Assembly: GCA_965140935.1 (NCBI GenBank)
Contig: CBCSLL010001906.1
Location: 1 to 22,354, forward strand
Origin: Rotaria magnacalcarata
Taxonomy: Eukaryota
Length of the DNA: 22,354 nucleotides
Reading direction: 5' to 3'
Shown here piece by piece: positions 5,580-13,790 of the stretch (its first letter is position 1; the number at the start of each line of letters is the position of its first letter). The notes below the pieces were generated by a model. That model did not search any database. It saw only the letters and a list, made by a program, of their open reading frames with translations, and was not told the origin of the DNA. The translations under genes and the position numbers were made by a program.

Positions 5580-5767
5580 ATGAGTAAAGCAACAACTACG
5601 GATAAGAAAAGTGATTCCGGTCCACTTTATCGAATTCCTCCTTATTTTTATATTCATGTTTTGGATCAAAATACAAATGTTACGAGACTTGAAATTGGTC
5701 CCAAAACATTTATTAAACAAGACAATGAAACAGTCACCATCGGACCAGAAAAAATGATTACAGTACC
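5580..5767 (+). CDS. MVP: MVP1 exon 1 ([10 protein letters not shown]...EKMITVP, ends in phase 2).
   Basis: First ATG lies in frame with the ORF 5541..5804. Donor GTACGT is at 5768. The junction restores TVP|PRHYCV, identical to the human MVP motif. Confidence 0.65.
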
Positions 5768-8650
5768 GTACGTTGATAATTGTTATTCTAAGAAAAGACG
5801 ATGAAAGAAAGTAAAAATTTGGATGTTTTTTTAGGCCCCGTCATTACTGTGTTATTGAATCGCCTGTAGTACGCAATGATGCTGGCGAAGTTATTTTCGA
5901 TAAAAATGGACAAGCCAAACTTGTTCATGCTGACTTGGAAATTCGGCTTTCACAACCTGATCAATCACCTTTTCCTCTCTATCCCGGTGAAATTCTTCGT
6001 CAAGTATAAAGAAACATTCAAAATTTTCTATTGAGAATAAAATAAAACTACTTTTTATGTTTGTTCTATTTTAAAGCCTGTTACTCCATTAAAAGTTGTT
6101 CCTGCTAATTCAGCATTACGCTTAAAGGCTGTCCTAGATTTTCAAGATGAAGCAGCAGATGAACAACGTCGGGCTGGAGATGAATGGTTATATGAAGGAC
6201 CAGCTACTTATATTCCTCGTAAAGAAGTTAGCGTTGAAGAACAAATTCGTGCTACAGTTATCTCGTCTAATCAAGCTATAAGGCTTTGCGCAAAAAAGGA
6301 AATCGTTGATCGTACAGGCCAACGACGTGTTACTGGTGAAGAATGGTTAATTAAAAAGACCGGTGCATATTTACCACTTGCATATGTAAGTGCAAATCTC
6401 GTCGGTATGCGAAATACTAATCTTGTTATTTTTAGGAAACTGTGGTTTCAGTAGAAAATGCTTATGTATTAACCGATAAAAAGGCTCTTCATCTTTGTGC
6501 ATTAAAAACTTTTACAGATAATTTCGGTAAAGAACGTATGAACGGTGAAGAATGGCTTGTAACACTTGCTGACACTGAAACACATATTCTTAGTGTCTAT
6601 GAACAATTAGTTTCTGTTGTTAATGTAGTAACATTAACATCACGTCAATATTGTGTTATAATCGATCCAGTTGCTGACGGAAAACCACAATTAGGGAAAA
6701 AAGCAAGTTTTTATCTCAATGAAATCAGAGAGATTAATTATGTTGATTTCTTTCTTTCGTAGAAACTTGTTGTCGGTGAAAAATCATTCTTTCTTCAACC
6801 CGGTGAAAAACTTCAAAATGGTATTCAAGATGTTTTTATCTTAGGTGAAGATGAAGGTGTTATTCTAAAATGTATCGAAGCATTTAAAGATACACAAGCT
6901 AATGTTAATCGAAATCCCGGCGATCGTTGGATGATTCGTGGTCCAACGTAAGATATTTAATGTCTCTATGAAAGGTCTAAATTAATATTATTCTTGTAAA
7001 TTTTAGTGAATATATACCTCCAACACAAGTTGAAGTTGTGACACGTCGAAAAGCTTTGCCATTAGATGCCAATGAAGGTATCTATGTTCGTGATATCAAA
7101 ACTGGTTGTGTCCGTGCCGTCATTGGCGAAACTTATATGTTAACACAAGATGAAGAATTATGGCAAAAAGAATTGCCTAAGAAAGTTGAAGAATTATTAT
7201 CTCGTGATGCTTTAAGTGAACGAAATGTTCTCACGCGAAGTCAAACATCAGATAAAAATCAATCTCAACAACAAGCAGCAACAACAACAACAAGTTCAAA
7301 CGTAAATGTTGCCAAACGTGATAAATCAAAACTAGTTACCTATCGTGTACCACACAATGCCGCTGTACAAATTTATGATTATAAAGCTAAGAAAGCACGT
7401 ATTATATTCGGCCCTGAACTTGTTATGCTTGGACCCGATGAACATTTTACATTACTTTCATTGAGTGGTAGTGTACCAAAAAAACCAAATCAAATTCAAT
7501 CACTTTGCTTACTTCTTGGACCAGACTTTTTTACTGATGTCATTGTTATTGAAACAGCTGATCATGCTCGTCTTTCACTTCAACTTTCATACAATTGGCA
7601 TTTTGAAATATCAGATATTGAAGACGACAAAGAAGCATCCAAACTGTTTTCTGTACCAGATTTTGTTGGTGATGCAGCTAAAGCTATAGCGTCACGTGTT
7701 CGTGGTGCTGTTGCTGGTACACAATTTGATGATTTTCATAAGAATTCAGCTCAAATTATTCGTACGTCTGTATTTGGTCTTGATGCAAATCAAAAAATAC
7801 GAGAAAACTTTACTTTTCCACAAAACAATCTTGTCATTACATCGATTGATATTCAAAGTGTTGAACCTGTGGATCAACGAACACGAGATGCTCTTCAGAA
7901 GAGTGTTCAATTAGCTATTGAAGTAAGATAAAAGACTATCGATTGAATTGTGATGATTAATTTCCGTGTATGTCTACATTTTAGATTACAACAAATTCAC
8001 AAGAAGCTGCAGCTAAGCATGAAGCTTCGCGTCGAGAACAAGAAGCAAAAGGTTTACTAGAACGTCAACGTATTAAAGATGATGCTGAAGCTGAAGAGGT
8101 TCGAAAACAACTTCTCCTGTTACAAGCTGAATCATCGGCTGTTGAAGTCACAGGGCAAGCTAAAGCCGAAGCACAAAGTCGAGCTGAATCTGCTCTCATT
8201 GAAGGACGAGCATCTGTTGAACAAGGTATAAATATTTTATTTTTCCAATGGAATTCAATAAGTGAATTTTTCTTTTGTTTAGCTCGTCTCAGGGCTGACG
8301 CTGCACGAATTGAAGCCGAAGCTGAAATATCACGCCTACAATTGGCACGCGAAGCTGAAATTAACTATTTACGTGAACAGAATGAATTAGAAATTACTAA
8401 AAAGGCTGAAATGTCACGTATTGAAACCGACAAATTCAAATTACAAGTTGAATCAATCGGTGCATCAACAATACAAGCCATTGCAACTTCAGGTCCAGAT
8501 ACACAAGTTAAACTTTTACAAGCGCTCGGTCTTCAGTCCATGTTGGTTACTGATGGTCATTCACCTATCAATCTAATGGGCTTTGGACAAGGACTTTTAG
8601 GTGGTTTAAATGCAAATACAATTAGCAATGCGGGTGGAGCACCTAATTAA
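5580..8650 (+). CDS. MVP: Major vault protein gene, paralog 1 (gene span). Exon model: join(5580..5767,5835..6003,6077..6385,6436..6702,6763..6947,7007..7922,7985..8225,8283..8650), 2643 nt, 880 aa.
   Basis: The translation matches MVP hallmarks along its whole length. N-terminus: [37 protein letters not shown]. Vault repeats: [46 protein letters not shown]. Shoulder/cap: [84 protein letters not shown] coiled-coil tail follows. All splice junctions keep the frame. Introns are GT-AG except one probable GC-AG, and the gene ends at TAA 8648-8650. Confidence 0.85.
5835..6003 (+). CDS. MVP: MVP1 exon 2 ([56 protein letters not shown]).
   Basis: Acceptor tttttttag|G is at 5834/5835; donor GTATAA is at 6004. 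Confidence 0.6.
6077..6385 (+). CDS. MVP: MVP1 exon 3 (PVTPLKVV...[17 protein letters not shown]).
   Basis: Acceptor ttttaaag|C is at 6076/6077; donor GTAAGT is at 6386. Confidence 0.65.
6436..6702 (+). CDS. MVP: MVP1 exon 4 ([20 protein letters not shown]...[13 protein letters not shown]).
   Basis: Acceptor atttttag|G is at 6435/6436. The exon ends before GCAAGT at 6703. The ORF-track tail [19 protein letters not shown] is intron read-through. Confidence 0.55.
6763..6947 (+). CDS. MVP: MVP1 exon 5 ([30 protein letters not shown]...[13 protein letters not shown], ends in phase 2).
   Basis: Acceptor ttcgtag|A is at 6762/6763; donor GTAAGA is at 6948. The frame continues from exon 4 only if the 60-nt GC-AG intron is removed. 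Confidence 0.55.
7007..7922 (+). CDS. MVP: MVP1 exon 6 ([30 protein letters not shown] ... SVQLAIE), 916 nt.
   Basis: Acceptor aattttag|T is at 7006/7007; donor GTAAGA is at 7923. The ORF-track M at 7038 is a GTG artefact. The exon carries a Q/T-rich low-complexity insert ([24 protein letters not shown]). Confidence 0.7.
7985..8225 (+). CDS. MVP: MVP1 exon 7 ([80 protein letters not shown], ends in phase 1).
   Basis: Acceptor cattttag|A is at 7984/7985; donor GT is at 8226-8227. Confidence 0.65.
8283..8650 (+). CDS. MVP: MVP1 exon 8 ([103 protein letters not shown]...GAPN*).
   Basis: Acceptor tttgtttag|C is at 8282/8283; stop TAA is at 8648-8650. The exon overlaps ORF 8342..8650, whose M is a TTG artefact. 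Confidence 0.65.
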
Positions 8651-9395
8651 TGCATTGAAGAAAATTATTAGATAAAACTTTCTTTTTTGTTGAAGAAGAA
8701 CAATAATTTTTGTCCGTTCCTTCGTGTTTTCGTATGAATAATTTAACTATATAAGTGCACTCTACTTATTGTGTAGTTCATGTATGAATAATAGACTGTG
8801 ATGATCATCATAAGAAACAATTTTTTCACTACCTAGCTATTATCTACTTCCTAGCTCTTTTCAAAATGTATTGAAAAGTGCTTCAAAAATAGGCACCCCA
8901 TGGCGATGTATTTCTTCACTTCACCTTGACAATTCCGATGTTTTTATTTTATAGCTTGTCAATACCTCGAAAATTCAATGTGATAAGTGCATTTATTTTA
9001 AATTAAAGTTTAGTATTCCAGTTCGAAAAAACAACGTAAGAGTGTGAGAGCGACTTTCGTGATTTGTTGAGTCATCGGCAGAAACTAGATTGAAATCCCA
9101 TGTTTCAATTAATTTACAAATACTTCACTTGAAATAAAAATCCACTCAGAAAAGTTATCAATAGTTGGGAGACAATTTTTGGAGGCTCGTCGGAACTTTC
9201 CTTTTGTTAGAATATTCGTTGTATTGACTGAGTCACGCTTGAGAAGTCTCCCTCGTAAGATTTACTCTTCCCAAATGTGTTTTGTGTTGTTTAGCACATT
9301 TACAATGTCATTTGAATAGACGCTAAATTTGTTGAATACTAAATTAAATCGAATCAGATTCATAACTGAAATACGCGAAGCAGCAATCGAATGTA

Positions 9396-9403
9396 CTCTA
9401 GAA
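9396..9403. repeat. Left 8-bp target-site duplication (CTCTAGAA) of the hAT-like MITE.
   Basis: An identical octamer directly abuts both TIRs (9396-9403 and 10079-10086). Confidence 0.7.
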
Positions 9404-10078
9404 CAGAGATGCCAGATGTGAAAGTCGAAAATCCGGAAAATTCCGGAATTGTTTTTTCAGAATCCGGAAAAAATCCGGAAAGGTTTTCAAGGATCAATTT
9501 TAGTCACGTAAAGGACATCTTTCTCAGTTAAATTATAAATAGCTTTGTATATTTTCGCAAAATAAAACATACTGTAATTACACAAAAATAAAAATAAACA
9601 GCTAAATGTTGCCAATTTATAGAAAATAACTTAGAAATTACACAATTTGAAGTTAATTAGCACGTTGTTTTTTGGCACAATATTTTTCATTAGAATGAAT
9701 AGGTTTCAGCAGTTCCGGTTTTGATAAAAAAAATTATAAATTTCTGTACATGATAAAGATGAGTTAAAACGAATTTTAAATTCAGCTGCAACAAGTTTCA
9801 TTGACATACGATTTCGGTTATCATCGTATAGATGCTTCATGGCTGAAAAAACACTTTCAACAAATGCATTGCTACATGGAATAGAGATAAGGTCACCAAT
9901 AGAAGAAAATATTAAATCTCTACTGAATTATTCACAATTTAGAATGCTAAAACAAATGAAATAAAACTGAAATAAGAAATCGCTAAAATCCGGAAAAAAT
10001 CCGGAAGCCGAAAAGTATCCGGAAAAACTTCAAAAATCCGGAATTTTTCCGGATTTTCCGGATCATCTGGCATCTCTG
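9404..10078. mobile_element. Non-autonomous hAT-superfamily MITE, 675 bp. It has a perfect 15-bp TIR (CAGAGATGCCAGATG ... CATCTGGCATCTCTG), subterminal (A)ATCCGGAAAA repeats at both ends, no ORF, and an AT-rich interior.
   Basis: Both TIRs were read directly and are flanked by a perfect 8-bp direct repeat (CTCTAGAA). An 8-bp TSD and a CAGAG-type terminus are the hAT signature, and the TSD fits the nTnnnnAn preference. At least 5 ATCCGGAA(A) motifs lie within ~80 bp of each end. Confidence 0.75.
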
Positions 10079-10086
10079 CTCTAGAA
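10079..10086. repeat. Right 8-bp target-site duplication (CTCTAGAA) of the hAT-like MITE.
   Basis: See the left TSD. Confidence 0.7.
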
Positions 10087-10442
10087 TCAATCGAGGCTTT
10101 GCGTTTGTGTTTGCTTTGAAAATGATTTCATTTCAGGTAGAATAACATTTTCTCTTTTTTTTTATGTATCATACTCAACTTTCTCAATTACTTCAATAAA
10201 ATTAACATATATACGTATATCAAATTTTATTAAATTATTTTATTTTTCGAATGGAAAAAGCTATTTTCTGAGGTCACGCACATATATTAAAAATAATAAG
10301 TATAAAACAATGTTCTGTCCTTCTTACAAAGAAACATGTGTTTTTATTTTAAGAATCTGACTAATGTCTTGTGTCTAAACTGGACATAGAAATTCAAATT
10401 TTATGAGTTTTGTTTTTTCTTGATCGATTTGTTCTCAATCGT

Positions 10443-10448
10443 TTTATT
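10443..10448 (-). promoter_or_regulatory. AATAAA polyadenylation signal overlapping the MVP2 stop codon (cAATAAAa). A second AATAAA lies about 100 nt downstream at ~10338-10343 (-).
   Basis: The minus-strand sequence reads ...CCACAAAGACAATAAAACGATTG. Confidence 0.3.
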
Positions 10449-10557
10449 GTCTTTGTGGTGTACCAACTAAATCAACGGCAGTATTGAAAAGATTAATTGG
10501 ACTGCGTCCATCAGTAATCAAAGTTGATTTAATACCAAGAGCTTGAAGAAGTTTAAC
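10444..10557 (-). CDS. MVP: MVP2 exon 14 ([37 protein letters not shown]).
   Basis: Acceptor tttag|G (ag = 10559,10558); stop TAA at 10446-10444. Confidence 0.6.
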
Positions 10558-13500
10558 CTAAATAATGAGAGAGGAAAAAACAAGCAGTTAGTAAAGTGTA
10601 GCACGAATTCTTATTAAGATAAAATCTTACTTGATTATCGGGTCCGCTAGTAGCAATAGCTTGAATAGTTTTTGGACCGATAGCAGCAACATGCTCTTTG
10701 AATTCTGAAATTTCAATATCGGCTAATCGTTTTGCTTTTTCTATTTCTAAATTAGCTGTCGACGTTGAATAATGTAATTCAAGTTGGCGTGCTTGCGTTA
10801 AACGTATAAGTTCAGCATCAGATTCAATCTTTGAAGCTTGTGCACGAAGTGTAGCTGAAAAAGAGAAAAGAGAACATATAATATATATATATATCGATAC
10901 AGATGTTCAATATGCGACATACCTTGATCAACAGCAGCTGCACCTTCGATTTTAGCTGCTTCTGCTCTTGATTGAGCTTCAGCGCGTGATTGACCGGTGG
11001 TTTCAACAGCAGATGACAGTGCTTGAAGTTCTAATAATTTTCGTCGTTCCTTTTCAGCTATAAAAATGAAAAGGTTTACGATTCCAATTTCACATAGAAT
11101 AAAATTCTACCTTCTGCTTCATCAGCAATTTTCTGTCGTTCTAAATGACCCTTTGCTTCTTGTTCTGTGCGTGAAGCTAAATGTCTATAGGAAAAACGAA
11201 GCAAATAAAAATTTGAAGTTCATTTTTTGTTAAACATACTTCGCTTGGGCTTCTTGTGAATTTGTTGTTATCTAAAATGGAGACATGCACGGAAATTAAT
11301 CATCACAATTCGATCGATAATCTTTTATCTTACTTCAATAGCTAATTGAACACTCTTCTGAAGAGCATCTCGTGTTCGTTGATCCACTGGTTCAACACTT
11401 TGAATATCAATCGATGTCAGAACCAAACTATTTTGCGGGAATACTAGTCTTTTTTTCACATGTTTATTTTCATCAAGACCGAATACTGAGCTTCGAATGA
11501 TTTTCGCAGAGTTCTTATGGAAATCATCGAATGAAATACCAGCAACAGTACCACGAATTTTAGCTGCTACAGCTTTACAAAAATCACCAATAAAATCTGG
11601 TACTGAAAAAAGTTTTGTAACTTCTTTTTGATCATTGGAATCATTAACCTAAAATAATAAAAAAAAAACAAAGATTTGCTTTCTTTTCTTTGTAAACTCT
11701 TATAATTCTTACCTCAAAATGCCAGTTATATGAAAGTCTGAGTGAAAGACGAGCATGATCACTTGATTCGATTGTTACAATATCACTTGAAAATTCGGGT
11801 CCCATTAGAAGACAAATAGCTCGAATCTTATTTGGTACTTTGGGTTTTTCACCGGATAAATTCAATATTGTGAATTGCTCATCTGGTCCGAGCATAACAA
11901 GTTCAGGGCCAAATACAATGCGTGCTTTTTTAGATTTGAAGTCATAAATTTGTACACAAGCATTGTGTGGAACTCGATAGGCAACTACTTTCGATTTATC
12001 TCTTGGTGGTATAGCTGTTTTTTGTGCTGATTTATCATCAAAACATCGAGCATCTTGATTGAGAAGTAGTTCAACTTGGGCAGGTAATTCTTTCTCCCAA
12101 AGTTCTTCATTTTCAGTCAATAAATATGTAGTGCCAATGACTGATCGAACTTTACCAGTTTTAACATCTCGAACATAAATACCTTCATTGACATCTAATG
12201 GTGTAGCTCTACGTCGGAGTACTACTTCCGATTCGACAGCTGGAATATAGTCTTTAGGTCCTCGGATCATCCAACGATCACCAGGATTACGTAGGACCGT
12301 CTATAAAAACAATCAATCGGATACAATTGATAAATAAAAATTTCACAAAACCTATTAACTTACTCCATCTTCTTTAAACGATTCAGTACAACGAAGAATG
12401 AGTCCTTCATCGTCTTCAAGAACATAGACATCCTGAATACCTTTAGCTAATTTTTCACCGGGTTGAAGAAAGAATGTTGTTTCTCCCTTTAGAAAATCGA
12501 AAGATTTAAAATTTAAAATTCATATGATTCTAATTTATCATACTTTAACAAGCTTTTTCTTTCCAAGTTGCGGTTTACCATCTGAACCAACAGGATCAAT
12601 AATAACAGCGTATTGACGAGAATTTAATACAGTTACTGCTACAACACCAACAACCTAAATATTTTATTCATTATTTTTCATCTACGAAATAAACATATTT
12701 AATTATATCTACCTCTTCAAAAACATCTGGAATATATGTTTCAGCATCACGGGCATATACAAGCCATTCTTCTCCATTGAGACGTTTATGTTTGAATGAA
12801 TCAATAAATGTGCCCAATGCTCGTAAATGAAGAGCTTTCTGGAAGAAGAAAAAAGGGCAATAAAATAAATATATCATGAAAAAAGACGACTGATTCCTAA
12901 GAACACATACTTTGTCAGTTAGTACATAGGCTTTAACTGTTGAAACAACTTCTTCGTAAGCTAATGGTAAGTATGAGCCAATAGTACGATTAAGCCATTC
13001 TTCGCCTGTTTCGCGTGCAATTCCATCGCGGTCAACCATCTCTTTTTTCGCACGTAAACGAACAGCTTCGTTTGGTTTAAGAATAACAGCTTTTATTTGT
13101 TCTTCAACGCTAACTTCTTTACGTGGAAGATAAGTTCCTAGAAATAAATTTATTCGAAAATGTTTACTATTAAAAAATTTAGAATATTTTTGTTTTGCTA
13201 TTTTACCTGGTCCACAGAAGAGAAATTCATCTCCAGCACGTATCTGTTGATCATTCTCATCGGTAAAATCCAAAACCGCACGAAGGCGTAATGCACAGTT
13301 AGGCTCAATAACTTTCAATGGTGTTACATTCTGTTTGAGTATTTCACCAGGATAGAGTGGAAATGGTTCTTGAGCAAATCGAATATCAACATCCGAATGT
13401 AACAACTTAACTTGACCATTAGAATCAATAACAACTTTCGCATTTTTATCACGAACAGCTGGATTTTCAACAACGCAATAATGACGAGGACTAGATAATT

Positions 13501-13790
13501 AGTTATACATAGAATTTTTTAATGAAATCAAAGAAAGAAAAACAACTTCAACATACGGAATTATTATCATGCGTTCTGGTCCAACGAGGACTTTTTCATG
13601 ATCTTGTTTAACAAATGTAAGTGGGCCAACTTCAAGTCGGCTTACATTTTTATTTTGATCGAGCACATGTAGATAGTAGAAAGGAGGAACTCGGTAAACT
13701 AAAATTCAACGAAGAAAAAACAACGAGCATTGAATCTTAATGCAAAAGAATTAAAATATTCATACCACCGGTAACTTTTGAATCAGCCAT
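10444..13790 (-). CDS. MVP: Major vault protein gene, paralog 2 (gene span, minus strand). Exon model: complement(join(10444..10557,10631..10854,10923..11057,11111..11184,11240..11271,11334..11648,11713..12300,12364..12486,12544..12654,12713..12838,12911..13137,13207..13490,13557..13698,13766..13790)), 2520 nt, 839 aa.
   Basis: The spliced translation is [35 protein letters not shown] ... [11 protein letters not shown] ... [18 protein letters not shown] ... [11 protein letters not shown] ... ETGEEWL ... [19 protein letters not shown] ... [16 protein letters not shown] ... [20 protein letters not shown] ... [14 protein letters not shown] ... [12 protein letters not shown] ... [19 protein letters not shown] ... 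[30 protein letters not shown] ... [24 protein letters not shown] ... *. It is collinear with paralog 1 and with vertebrate MVP. All 13 introns are GT-AG of 53-73 nt, all junctions preserve the frame, and the total length is divisible by 3. Confidence 0.85.
10631..10854 (-). CDS. MVP: MVP2 exon 13 ([75 protein letters not shown]).
   Basis: Acceptor ttttcag (ag = 10856,10855); donor GTAAGA at 10630. Confidence 0.6.
10876..10894. repeat. (TA)n microsatellite inside an MVP2 intron.
   Basis: ATATAATATATATATATAT read directly. Confidence 0.7.
10923..11057 (-). CDS. MVP: MVP2 exon 12 ([45 protein letters not shown]).
   Basis: Acceptor tttatag (ag = 11059,11058); donor GTATGT at 10922. The intron contains a (TA)n microsatellite. 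Confidence 0.6.
11111..11184 (-). CDS. MVP: MVP2 exon 11 ([25 protein letters not shown]).
   Basis: Acceptor cctatag (ag = 11186,11185); donor GTAGAA at 11110. Confidence 0.55.
11240..11271 (-). CDS. MVP: MVP2 exon 10, a 32-nt micro-exon ([10 protein letters not shown] + first 2 nt of K).
   Basis: Acceptor cattttag (ag = 11273,11272); donor GTATGT at 11239. Its 5' portion lies in the block that is near-identical to MVP1. Confidence 0.55.
11334..11648 (-). CDS. MVP: MVP2 exon 9 ([105 protein letters not shown]).
   Basis: Acceptor tattttag (ag = 11650,11649); donor GTAAGA at 11333. Confidence 0.65.
11713..12300 (-). CDS. MVP: MVP2 exon 8 ([45 protein letters not shown] ... SYNWHFE), 588 nt.
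   Basis: The exon lies within ORF 11644..12270(-), whose tail [10 protein letters not shown]... is intron read-through. Acceptor ttttatag (ag = 12302,12301); donor GTAAGA at 11712. Confidence 0.7.
12364..12486 (-). CDS. MVP: MVP2 exon 7 ([41 protein letters not shown]).
   Basis: Acceptor ttctaaag (ag = 12488,12487); donor GTAAGT at 12363. Confidence 0.6.
12544..12654 (-). CDS. MVP: MVP2 exon 6 ([37 protein letters not shown]).
   Basis: Acceptor atatttag (ag = 12656,12655); donor GTATGA at 12543. Confidence 0.6.
12713..12838 (-). CDS. MVP: MVP2 exon 5 ([42 protein letters not shown]).
   Basis: Acceptor tcttccag (ag = 12840,12839); donor GTAGAT at 12712. Confidence 0.6.
12911..13137 (-). CDS. 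MVP: MVP2 exon 4 ([76 protein letters not shown]).
   Basis: Acceptor tttctag (ag = 13139,13138); donor GTATGT at 12910. Confidence 0.6.
13207..13490 (-). CDS. MVP: MVP2 exon 3 ([95 protein letters not shown]).
   Basis: Acceptor ttatctag (ag = 13492,13491); donor GTAAAA at 13206. The exon overlaps ORF 12671..13405(-). Confidence 0.6.
13557..13698 (-). CDS. MVP: MVP2 exon 2 ([48 protein letters not shown]).
   Basis: Acceptor gaattttag (ag = 13700,13699); donor GTATGT at 13556. Confidence 0.6.
13766..13790 (-). CDS. MVP: MVP2 exon 1 (MADSKVTG + 1 nt).
   Basis: ATG at 13790-13788; donor GTATGA at 13765. An alternative donor 3 nt upstream would give the same phase. Confidence 0.45.

Follow-up and report, generated by a model that had tools for sequence, protein, structure and literature searches.

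A convergent pair of major vault protein genes in Rotaria magnacalcarata, probably old and retained, with differential intron loss and a putative recurrent conversion island

Why should two copies of one gene, lying side by side, differ so much in their introns? The question is raised by a 22,354-nt stretch of the bdelloid rotifer Rotaria magnacalcarata (contig CBCSLL010001906.1 of assembly GCA_965140935.1, positions 1 to 22,354 of the forward strand; hereafter, the window), in which two genes for the major vault protein (MVP), named here MVP1 and MVP2, face each other tail to tail, one with 7 introns and the other with 13. A single MVP gene has been reported for most eukaryotes and animals, with at least two in Dictyostelium and three in the salmon louse (PMC11219742). 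A first-pass annotation of the window, made from its letters only, had described the intron positions of the two genes as almost completely reshuffled and had proposed, as one explanation, an old duplication followed by rampant intron gain and loss. Our results support the old duplication and not the reshuffling. We consider it very probable that the locus holds an old MVP pair retained in bdelloids, whose introns were lost differentially and in which a short island has been converted recurrently.

As judged from sequence, the locus comprises two functional paralogous genes for MVP, the shell subunit of the vault particle. The gene models were assembled by hand from splice sites and then checked with a custom spliced protein-to-genome aligner. 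They are given here with the spacer that separates them and with the three introns whose positions they have in common; introns are named by the peptide that they interrupt, with a bar at the intron.

5580 to 8650, plus strand: MVP1 gene, 8 exons and 7 introns, 880 amino acids; the intron-poor paralogue.
5580-5767, 5835-6003, 6077-6385, 6436-6702, 6763-6947, 7007-7922, 7985-8225 and 8283-8650, plus strand: MVP1 exons.
10444 to 13790, minus strand: MVP2 gene, 14 exons and 13 introns, 839 amino acids; the intron-rich paralogue, with the ancestral structure kept.
13790-13766, 13698-13557, 13490-13207, 13137-12911, 12838-12713, 12654-12544 and 12486-12364, minus strand: MVP2 exons 1-7.
12300-11713, 11648-11334, 11271-11240, 11184-11111, 11057-10923, 10854-10631 and 10557-10444, minus strand: MVP2 exons 8-14.
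8651 to 10443, no strand: intergenic spacer between the two stop codons, 1793 nt.
5768 to 5834, plus strand: MVP1 intron 1, TVP|PRHYC, phase 2; position common with MVP2 intron 2 (13556-13491).
7923 to 7984, plus strand: MVP1 intron 6, LAIE|ITTN, phase 0; position common with MVP2 intron 9 (11333-11272).
8226 to 8282, plus strand: MVP1 intron 7, VEQ|A, phase 1; position common with MVP2 intron 12 (10922-10855).

With the MVP2 protein as its sole guide, the spliced aligner independently recovered all 7 MVP1 introns, whose phases are, in order, 2,0,0,0,2,0,1, and over all its 880 residues the MVP1 model agrees (100% identity) with P0001, a protein deposited for R. magnacalcarata. An exact look-up of P0001 in the contig collection gave no match, and the locus was studied by way of its R. 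socialis orthologue. The reading frame is intact in each gene. Retention of 17 of the 20 introns of the two genes would produce a frame break or a stop codon, and the remaining three (MVP1 intron 7 and MVP2 introns 3 and 4) have lengths in the orthologues that are not multiples of three. Moreover, an MVP2-type gene is found on an intronless environmental contig (L013), which is evidently a transcript; its protein (P0121) is 87% identical to MVP2 and aligns with it without gaps at 13 of the 13 MVP2 junctions. Since the splice-aligner, frame, orthologue and transcript checks agree, the intron counts, phases, peptide contexts and coordinates are correct. The 7 and 13 introns of the first-pass annotation were thus recovered by splice-site models and independent aligner, and exactly the three shared positions that it named were found, with the phases that it gave. 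Every private position that it listed is also correct, while the list omitted intron 1 of MVP2 (TG|VY, codon 9, phase 1) and made no mention of the GC donor of MVP1 intron 4. Note that the MVP2-guided aligner also returned a 60-nt intron at 7216-7275, inside a low-complexity insert of MVP1, which we rejected as spurious: the insert is coding in all deposited models and in all Rotaria and Adineta MVP1 orthologues.

Each of the two proteins matches Vault, Vault_2, Vault_3, Vault_4 and MVP_shoulder in Pfam (E-values 1e-17 to 1e-65), that is, the vault repeats PF01505, PF17794, PF17795 and PF17796 and then the shoulder PF11978. Residues 16-865 of MVP1 are colinear with residues 7-850 of human MVP (1100 bits), and residues 8-835 of MVP2 with residues 6-851 of rat and human MVP (about 1110 bits). 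This full-length colinearity with the structurally solved MVP (PDB 4V60, 4HL8 and 11DR) extends over about 845 residues and includes the cap-helix and the cap-ring. Together with the spacer between them, these matches bear out the description of two full-length, intact and convergent MVP paralogues. The vault of other organisms has a shell of 78 MVP subunits and is associated with vault RNA, TEP1 and vPARP; both rotifer proteins probably build vaults.

The two copies are clear paralogues, as had been annotated, at a BLASTP identity of 64% over 851 columns, which falls just under the 65-75% first estimated. Region by region their identity is 64-81%, except in the N-terminal tail, the variable loop and the C-terminal tail, where it drops to 12-19%. 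The variable loop, which is gapped relative to human MVP (at about residues 431-455), holds a low-complexity insertion rich in serine, threonine and glutamine (S/T/Q-rich), which the annotation had correctly placed in MVP1 and not in MVP2:

7239 to 7310, plus strand: S/T/Q-rich low-complexity insertion in MVP1, residues 451-474; coding in all deposited models.

The insert is conserved in the MVP1 of Rotaria and Adineta and missing from the MVP1 of Didymodactylos carnosus, from MVP2 and from the outgroups. Between the R. magnacalcarata and R. socialis orthologues, the ratio of non-synonymous to synonymous divergence (dN/dS) is 0.091 for MVP1 and 0.060 for MVP2, which argues for strong purifying selection on both genes. 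The synonymous difference between MVP1 and MVP2, about 0.58, equals the cross-species, cross-paralogue values and is therefore saturated; the same equality rules out whole-gene concerted evolution in R. magnacalcarata. In Adineta vaga the synonymous difference between the paralogues is somewhat lower, and extra conversion-like tracts are present.

How old is the pair? The same convergent arrangement of MVP1 and MVP2 is found in two loci of R. socialis (A and B), on chromosome CP075497 of A. vaga and in D. carnosus. In both R. socialis loci and in A. vaga the pair is flanked by a SUN-domain (Sad1_UNC) gene at the MVP1 side and by a TPT transporter gene at the MVP2 side; on the contig of D. carnosus, the pair has no called flanking genes. 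The window and R. socialis locus A are colinear, with a nucleotide identity of 90-95%, and the MVP2 orthologue models measure 839 amino acids in R. socialis locus A and A. vaga and 841 in R. socialis locus B. In a neighbour-joining tree built from 44 MVP sequences (300 bootstraps over 839 columns, support counted as unrooted bipartitions, no protist sequences), MVP1 and MVP2 form separate clades with 100% bootstrap each, and both clades include D. carnosus copies. Rotifer MVPs are monophyletic, also with 100% bootstrap, and stand apart from all other sampled animal MVPs. Because the rotifer sequences are monophyletic and D. carnosus has copies in both clades, the duplication is rotifer-specific and older than the bdelloid radiation. 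These results show that a local duplication in inverted, tail-to-tail orientation gave rise to the pair within the rotifer lineage, earlier than the divergence of living bdelloids, and the old duplication that had been proposed is upheld.

Loci A and B of R. socialis, which share their flanking genes at a synonymous divergence (dS) of about 0.8-1.0, are probably ohnologues of the bdelloid tetraploidy, and the MVP duplication would thus predate the bdelloid genome duplication. Additional MVP1-type genes are present elsewhere in the R. magnacalcarata genome (P0028 and P0035).

To follow the introns through this history, the positions in 16 genes were placed on one alignment: 11 bdelloid genes and those of Brachionus, Lottia, Lingula, Saccoglossus and Nematostella. 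The last four genera are the outgroups, and a position present in at least two of them was taken as ancestral. Fourteen ancestral animal intron positions were so defined, 7 of which are retained by MVP2 and one by MVP1. Those of MVP2 are FCGPG|TY, LTDK|KAL, FEE|VVG, KLVK|GE, KEDG|TVL, EAQAK|HL and PDNQ|VKLL, each present in two to four outgroups. The sole ancestral intron of MVP1, ILRQ|PVT, also occurs in Lottia, Lingula and both D. carnosus copies, and it is the 5'-most ancestral intron kept by any bdelloid copy. Novel positions amount to three per gene: LPLAY|ETV, LGKK|KLVV and IRGPT|EYIP in MVP1, and TG|VY, NWHFE|VND and EAE|AEK in MVP2. Thus, among the 14 private positions, 8 (7/10 in MVP2 and 1/4 in MVP1) are ancestral in animals and were kept in one copy, so the difference between 7 and 13 introns is mostly one of differential retention, not the almost complete reshuffling first described.

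The accompanying idea of rampant intron gain and loss fared no better, since the patterns have stayed unchanged through the history of Rotaria and Adineta. MVP2 has the same 13-intron pattern in both R. socialis loci and in A. vaga; MVP1 has the same 7-intron pattern in R. socialis A and A. vaga, and the copy in R. socialis B, like P0028, has one intron more. Because these patterns match across a synonymous divergence of 0.7-1.0, intron positions have been essentially static since the split of Rotaria and Adineta. The D. carnosus copies carry further private positions.

The losses in MVP1 also have a spatial order. All MVP1 genes lack the seven 3' ancestral positions, from LTDK|KAL to PDNQ|VKLL, and the alignment is ungapped at the lost sites. 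In D. carnosus, MVP1 keeps just the two 5'-most (ILRQ|PVT and FEGP|G) of the nine ancestral introns that would have been present before the duplication, an outcome with a chance of 1 in 36. Such consecutive, precise and 3'-biased loss is the classical signature of recombination with a 5'-truncated cDNA. We propose that a stem MVP1 recombined with such a cDNA, by reverse-transcriptase-mediated intron loss, which would have removed the consecutive 3' ancestral introns, and that a few introns may have been gained in MVP1 after this loss. The likeness to known reverse-transcriptase-mediated loss lies in the consecutive and precise losses with the 5'-most intron kept, and the mechanism is read from that pattern. 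When all 20 introns were compared with one another, no introner-like similarity was seen beyond the LAIE|ITTN pair considered below.

Some intron positions fall very near one another without coinciding. The six codons of alignment columns 592-597 (LSY|N|WHFE|) hold four different positions or phases: the W codon is interrupted in phase 2 in all four outgroups, the N codon is interrupted in phase 2 in the two D. carnosus genes and in phase 1 in R. socialis B MVP1 and P0028, and MVP2 has its intron after E, in phase 0. Other near-miss pairs are LGKK|K with KLVK|G and KEDG|T with IRGP|T. Near-miss positions may reflect intron sliding, or loss and then regain nearby. For LGKK|KLVV and KLVK|GE, which are 12 nt apart, we consider sliding unlikely, because the four intervening codons are conserved and lie on opposite sides of the introns.

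Next to differential loss, the locus bears the marks of exchange between the two genes. The introns at LAIE|ITTN are the sole intron pair of the window with a similarity above the shuffled null (score 42, null maximum 17). A repeat search found here a 207-nt inverted match of 90% identity (7815-8021 against 11235-11441), over a background of about 60-75%, and within this match lies a gene-conversion island of about 170 nt that spans the whole intron:

7839 to 8007, plus strand: conversion island, MVP1 side; 84 nt of exon 6, the entire intron 6 and about 23 nt of exon 7.
11249 to 11417, minus strand: conversion island, MVP2 side; includes intron 9; the copy that received the tract in the lineage of R. 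magnacalcarata.

The two introns match at 58 of 62 positions (94%), a 67-nt run is exact across the junction of exon 6 and intron 6, and 154 of the 160 positions from -140 to +20 around the acceptor match between the paralogues. The paralogous introns of A. vaga are identical (57/57), within a 132-nt exact run, and those of R. socialis are 76% identical in locus B, just above the shuffled range, and 72% in locus A, at the top of that range. Across genera the introns are unrelated: A. vaga and Rotaria share 14-20% in the multiple alignment and about 60% pairwise, the shuffled level. Moreover, intron 9 of R. magnacalcarata MVP2 is 89-94% identical to the MVP1 introns, against 58-69% to its own orthologue. 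Four-taxon site patterns point the same way. Within about 7839-8007 there are zero paralogue-specific sites, and at about 20 sites, 17 of them in or at the edges of the intron, MVP2 of R. magnacalcarata has the state of both MVP1 genes and R. socialis MVP2 has another. These patterns indicate that MVP2 was overwritten from MVP1 after R. magnacalcarata and R. socialis split.

In the 84 exonic nt before the intron, lineage-specific synonymous states are common to both paralogues, so that conversion has evidently recurred in the exonic part of the island. For one serine, Rotaria and Adineta use AGT in MVP1 and MVP2 alike, D. carnosus uses TCT in both, and the four non-rotifer outgroups use TCN; in Brachionus the same codon specifies alanine (GCT). 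As in interlocus conversion, identity is raised, intron included, over a saturated background, and sequences group by species or locus inside the tract and by paralogue outside it. The likeness, read from the pattern, is to a short tract homogenised, with its non-coding sequence, between inverted paralogues about 3 kb apart. We take these comparisons to show that the island has been homogenised repeatedly by ectopic gene conversion, through independent events in several lineages: a very recent one of its own in A. vaga, and older ones in both R. socialis loci and in D. carnosus.

Smaller patches of high identity were noted outside the island. A 41-nt exonic patch (6206-6246 and 13095-13135), which adjoins MVP2 intron 3, is 95% identical between the paralogues, and synonymous-site identity there is raised in R. 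socialis and A. vaga too; it could be a second small conversion patch or reflect nucleotide-level constraint. In A. vaga (L006), a second exact paralogue match, of 75 nt, lies outside the island (MVP1 about 1784-1858, MVP2 about 1805-1879), and alignment columns 50-124 and 500-549 show higher synonymous identity too, which suggests additional recent conversion tracts in this species.

What, then, do the three shared introns say about common ancestry? All three positions are missing from all outgroups. Since LAIE|ITTN sits in a recurrent conversion island, its shared position is not clean evidence of common ancestry, and the other two introns, when tested for conversion, were at shuffled-level identity (TVP|PRHYC 57%, with a shuffled mean of 57%; VEQ|A 56%). 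A reading of the shared positions as simple retention is thus weakened at LAIE|ITTN. The introns at TVP|PRHYC and VEQ|A are rotifer-specific, being found in the MVP1 and MVP2 genes of Rotaria and Adineta and missing from both copies of D. carnosus; if they are orthologous, this distribution takes either four independent losses, or two gains and then two transfers. It is possible, although less likely than not, that the three shared introns were gained in one paralogue and copied to the other by ectopic conversion, and are not relics from before the duplication. If true, this would be a documented case of intron spreading between paralogues.

Other explanations of the locus were weighed against these data. 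That the intron sets were reshuffled by a rampant and continuing gain and loss, in a fast-evolving compact genome, would agree with the 6 of 20 introns found at positions in one paralogue only and in no outgroup, with the extra private positions of the D. carnosus copies, and with the several novel positions that lie 4-15 codons from lost ancestral ones, LGKK|KLVV and KLVK|GE for example. We consider it improbable in view of the ancestral animal introns that make up 8 of the 14 private positions and of patterns that both R. socialis loci and A. vaga have in common, bar the one extra MVP1 intron of R. socialis B, across the divergence given above. The near-identity of the LAIE|ITTN intron and its flanks might stem not from conversion but from the conservation of a functional element, for example an intronic RNA or a splicing regulator. 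The island does encode a 36-residue peptide, invariant from cnidarians to rotifers and the most conserved of MVP, with the intron before ITTNSQEA, and the nucleotide identity of this exon across species and paralogues is already 88-95% among Rotaria and Adineta. The intron itself, however, is unrelated between genera yet identical within one locus, and that of R. magnacalcarata MVP2 resembles MVP1 and not its R. socialis orthologue; an Rfam scan of the whole window gave zero family matches, vault RNA included (a linked vault RNA gene is not expected). A functional element is thus very improbable as the explanation. Least probable of all is that one copy is a pseudogene, a contaminant or a horizontal acquisition, or that the pair is a palindrome created by assembly. 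Palindromic artefacts have been reported in older bdelloid assemblies, and the protein database search gave no exact match to the MVP2 protein. However, the copies are merely 64% identical, their frames are intact over 8 and 14 exons with dN/dS of 0.06-0.09, and the same arrangement is seen in four species, the chromosome-level assembly of A. vaga included. The phylogeny, which the first-pass annotation had named as the test for a contaminant or a horizontal acquisition, places both copies within the rotifer clade, and the two genes are alike in coding GC (37.7% and 37.9%) and in intron style. This reading is refuted.

The timing of the duplication is where an alternative deserves most attention. 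An origin before the separation of bdelloids and monogononts, with later loss of one copy in the monogononts, would make the pair a pan-rotifer feature. MVP2 groups with the monogononts in 44% of bootstraps, against 53% for bdelloid monophyly, and MVP1 and MVP2 are each 65-70% similar to mollusc and annelid MVPs, about as similar as they are to each other (64%). No second MVP type was found among the monogonont-like matches, which speaks for the later date; the intron data are uninformative here, because the Brachionus gene has a single, private intron. We give the earlier date a serious chance, somewhat short of even. Several points weigh against our preferred reading of an old retained pair with differential intron loss and a recurrently converted island. 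The tree, built by neighbour-joining only, leaves the order of the duplication and the monogonont split undecided. The ohnologue label of R. socialis loci A and B depends on their flanking genes and a dS of about 0.8-1.0, and the two loci come from different assemblies. The MVP2 transcript contig derives from a related bdelloid (87% identity) and not from R. magnacalcarata. Recombination with cDNA is a mechanism drawn from one spatial pattern and, unlike in a plain case of reverse-transcriptase-mediated loss, the LAIE|ITTN and VEQ|A introns in the 3' half of MVP1 are unexplained by it unless they were later gained or copied by conversion. Finally, part of the exonic identity of the island may be codon constraint on the invariant peptide, given the 88-95% already seen there in cross-species, cross-paralogue comparisons.

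How does the rotifer pair relate to known vault systems? Both proteins resemble metazoan MVPs (human and rat) in Pfam architecture and in the colinearity of repeats, shoulder, cap-helix and cap-ring, and MVP2 adds its seven animal intron positions. The rotifer differs from them in having two linked, divergent copies plus further MVP1-type genes, and in the S/T/Q-rich loop expansion of about 20 residues and the different C-terminal tail of MVP1. In the kinetoplastid Trypanosoma brucei, three divergent paralogues, MVP1-3, are all incorporated in one vault shell (PMC12547018). The rotifer genome is like the protist multi-paralogue vault systems (T. brucei MVP1-3, Dictyostelium alpha/beta) in holding several divergent full-length MVPs: at least two are kept under selection in one genome, as in hetero-oligomeric systems. 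The rotifer paralogue split is not orthologous to the protist splits, the rotifer MVPs forming one clade in our tree of non-protist sequences; because it lies inside Rotifera, with rotifer monophyly at 100% bootstrap, the MVP1/MVP2 duplication is independent of the protist paralogues. Tight convergent linkage and a conversion island further distinguish the rotifer genes, and we found no such description for protist genes. By analogy with the T. brucei shell, which offers a precedent for hetero-oligomeric vaults, it is possible that MVP1 and MVP2 are isoforms of the alpha/beta kind, as the first-pass annotation had suggested.

Among animals, the salmon louse too has several full-length MVP paralogues. 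Two of its three genes (LsMVP1-3) are on the same chromosome, and LsMvp2 and LsMvp3 are recent and highly similar, with three exons each (PMC11219742). The rotifer pair, in contrast, is ancient, with saturated synonymous divergence and very unlike exon structures. In A. vaga, of the sister genus, five genes of the same family were reported as over-expressed after irradiation or rehydration (PMC10809525), and the orthologues of the window pair are on CP075497; the portion of that report considered here describes no MVP gene arrangement, intron structure or conversion. Rotifers go unmentioned in a 2013 survey of MVP evolution (PMC3762200), and the literature searched gave no account of the linkage of the two genes, of their intron history or of the conversion island. 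The proteins of the rotifer pair are already deposited, as unnamed or 'major vault protein' entries. The pair is a new, independent example of a known gene-family history and, as such, a fairly ordinary case. Lineages with several MVP types are rare among animals, and bdelloid MVPs are induced by radiation and rehydration, according to the A. vaga study (PMC10809525). With its ancient, tightly linked and selectively maintained MVP1 and MVP2, a stress-tolerant animal offers a concrete candidate for vaults that are heteromeric or specialised. The locus also offers a compact example of intron evolution, with differential retention, a 3'-biased wipe-out, few gains and an island of conversion that carries an intron.

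The spacer between the genes has a history of its own. The orthologous spacers of R. socialis and A. vaga measure about 0.8-1.1 kb, and that of D. carnosus about 4 kb; the spacer of the window is 0.7 kb longer than that of R. socialis because of an insertion:

9364 to 10080, no strand: spacer insertion of about 0.7 kb, with 22-nt terminal inverted repeats at 9397-9418 and 10064-10085.

It holds arrays of AATCCGGAAAA-type subterminal repeats (inverted match I16 and direct matches D2 and D4 of the repeat search), is missing from the otherwise colinear R. socialis spacer and is specific to R. magnacalcarata. By its structure, it looks like a candidate non-autonomous DNA transposon. A target-site duplication could not be defined, no second copy was found in the window or in the fetched loci, and the terminal repeat is missing from all other fetched loci.

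The intron at one novel position of MVP1 bears on the deposited gene models:

6703 to 6762, plus strand: MVP1 intron 4, LGKK|KLVV; a GC-AG intron.

Its donor is GCAAGT. R. socialis locus A has the same GC donor, and at this site the donor is GT in R. socialis locus B, in A. vaga and in P0028. Three deposited models (P0002, P0003 and P0004; two of R. magnacalcarata and one of R. socialis) use upstream GT donors and so drop 11-25 conserved residues. The deposited A. vaga MVP2 model (P0127, 648 amino acids) is truncated, the complete gene, with 839 amino acids and 13 introns, being at L006 10001-13271. MVP2 of R. socialis locus A (L009 14173-17512, 839 amino acids), 99% identical to MVP2 of the window, has no Pfam match on record and was not among the matches of the protein search. 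The locus thus flags mis-annotated deposits, with a mis-spliced GC-AG intron in several MVP1 models and a truncated MVP2 in A. vaga.

Finally, some observations concern other genes. Besides the window pair, bdelloids hold further MVP1-type subclades (P0028 and P0035 of R. magnacalcarata). At the P0028 locus (L012), the adjoining gene is a MACPF gene and not MVP2. In Rotaria sp. Silwood1, divergent MVP1-type and long-branch MVP2-type genes (P0034, P0125) appear on one contig, which suggests another linked MVP pair. In the window, a gene for a pentapeptide-repeat protein lies upstream of MVP1, on the plus strand from 647 to about 2190. In R. socialis (L009, 2235-3801 and 5797-8959), a paralogous stretch of 79% identity is situated a few kb further upstream, which suggests that this gene underwent a local tandem duplication.

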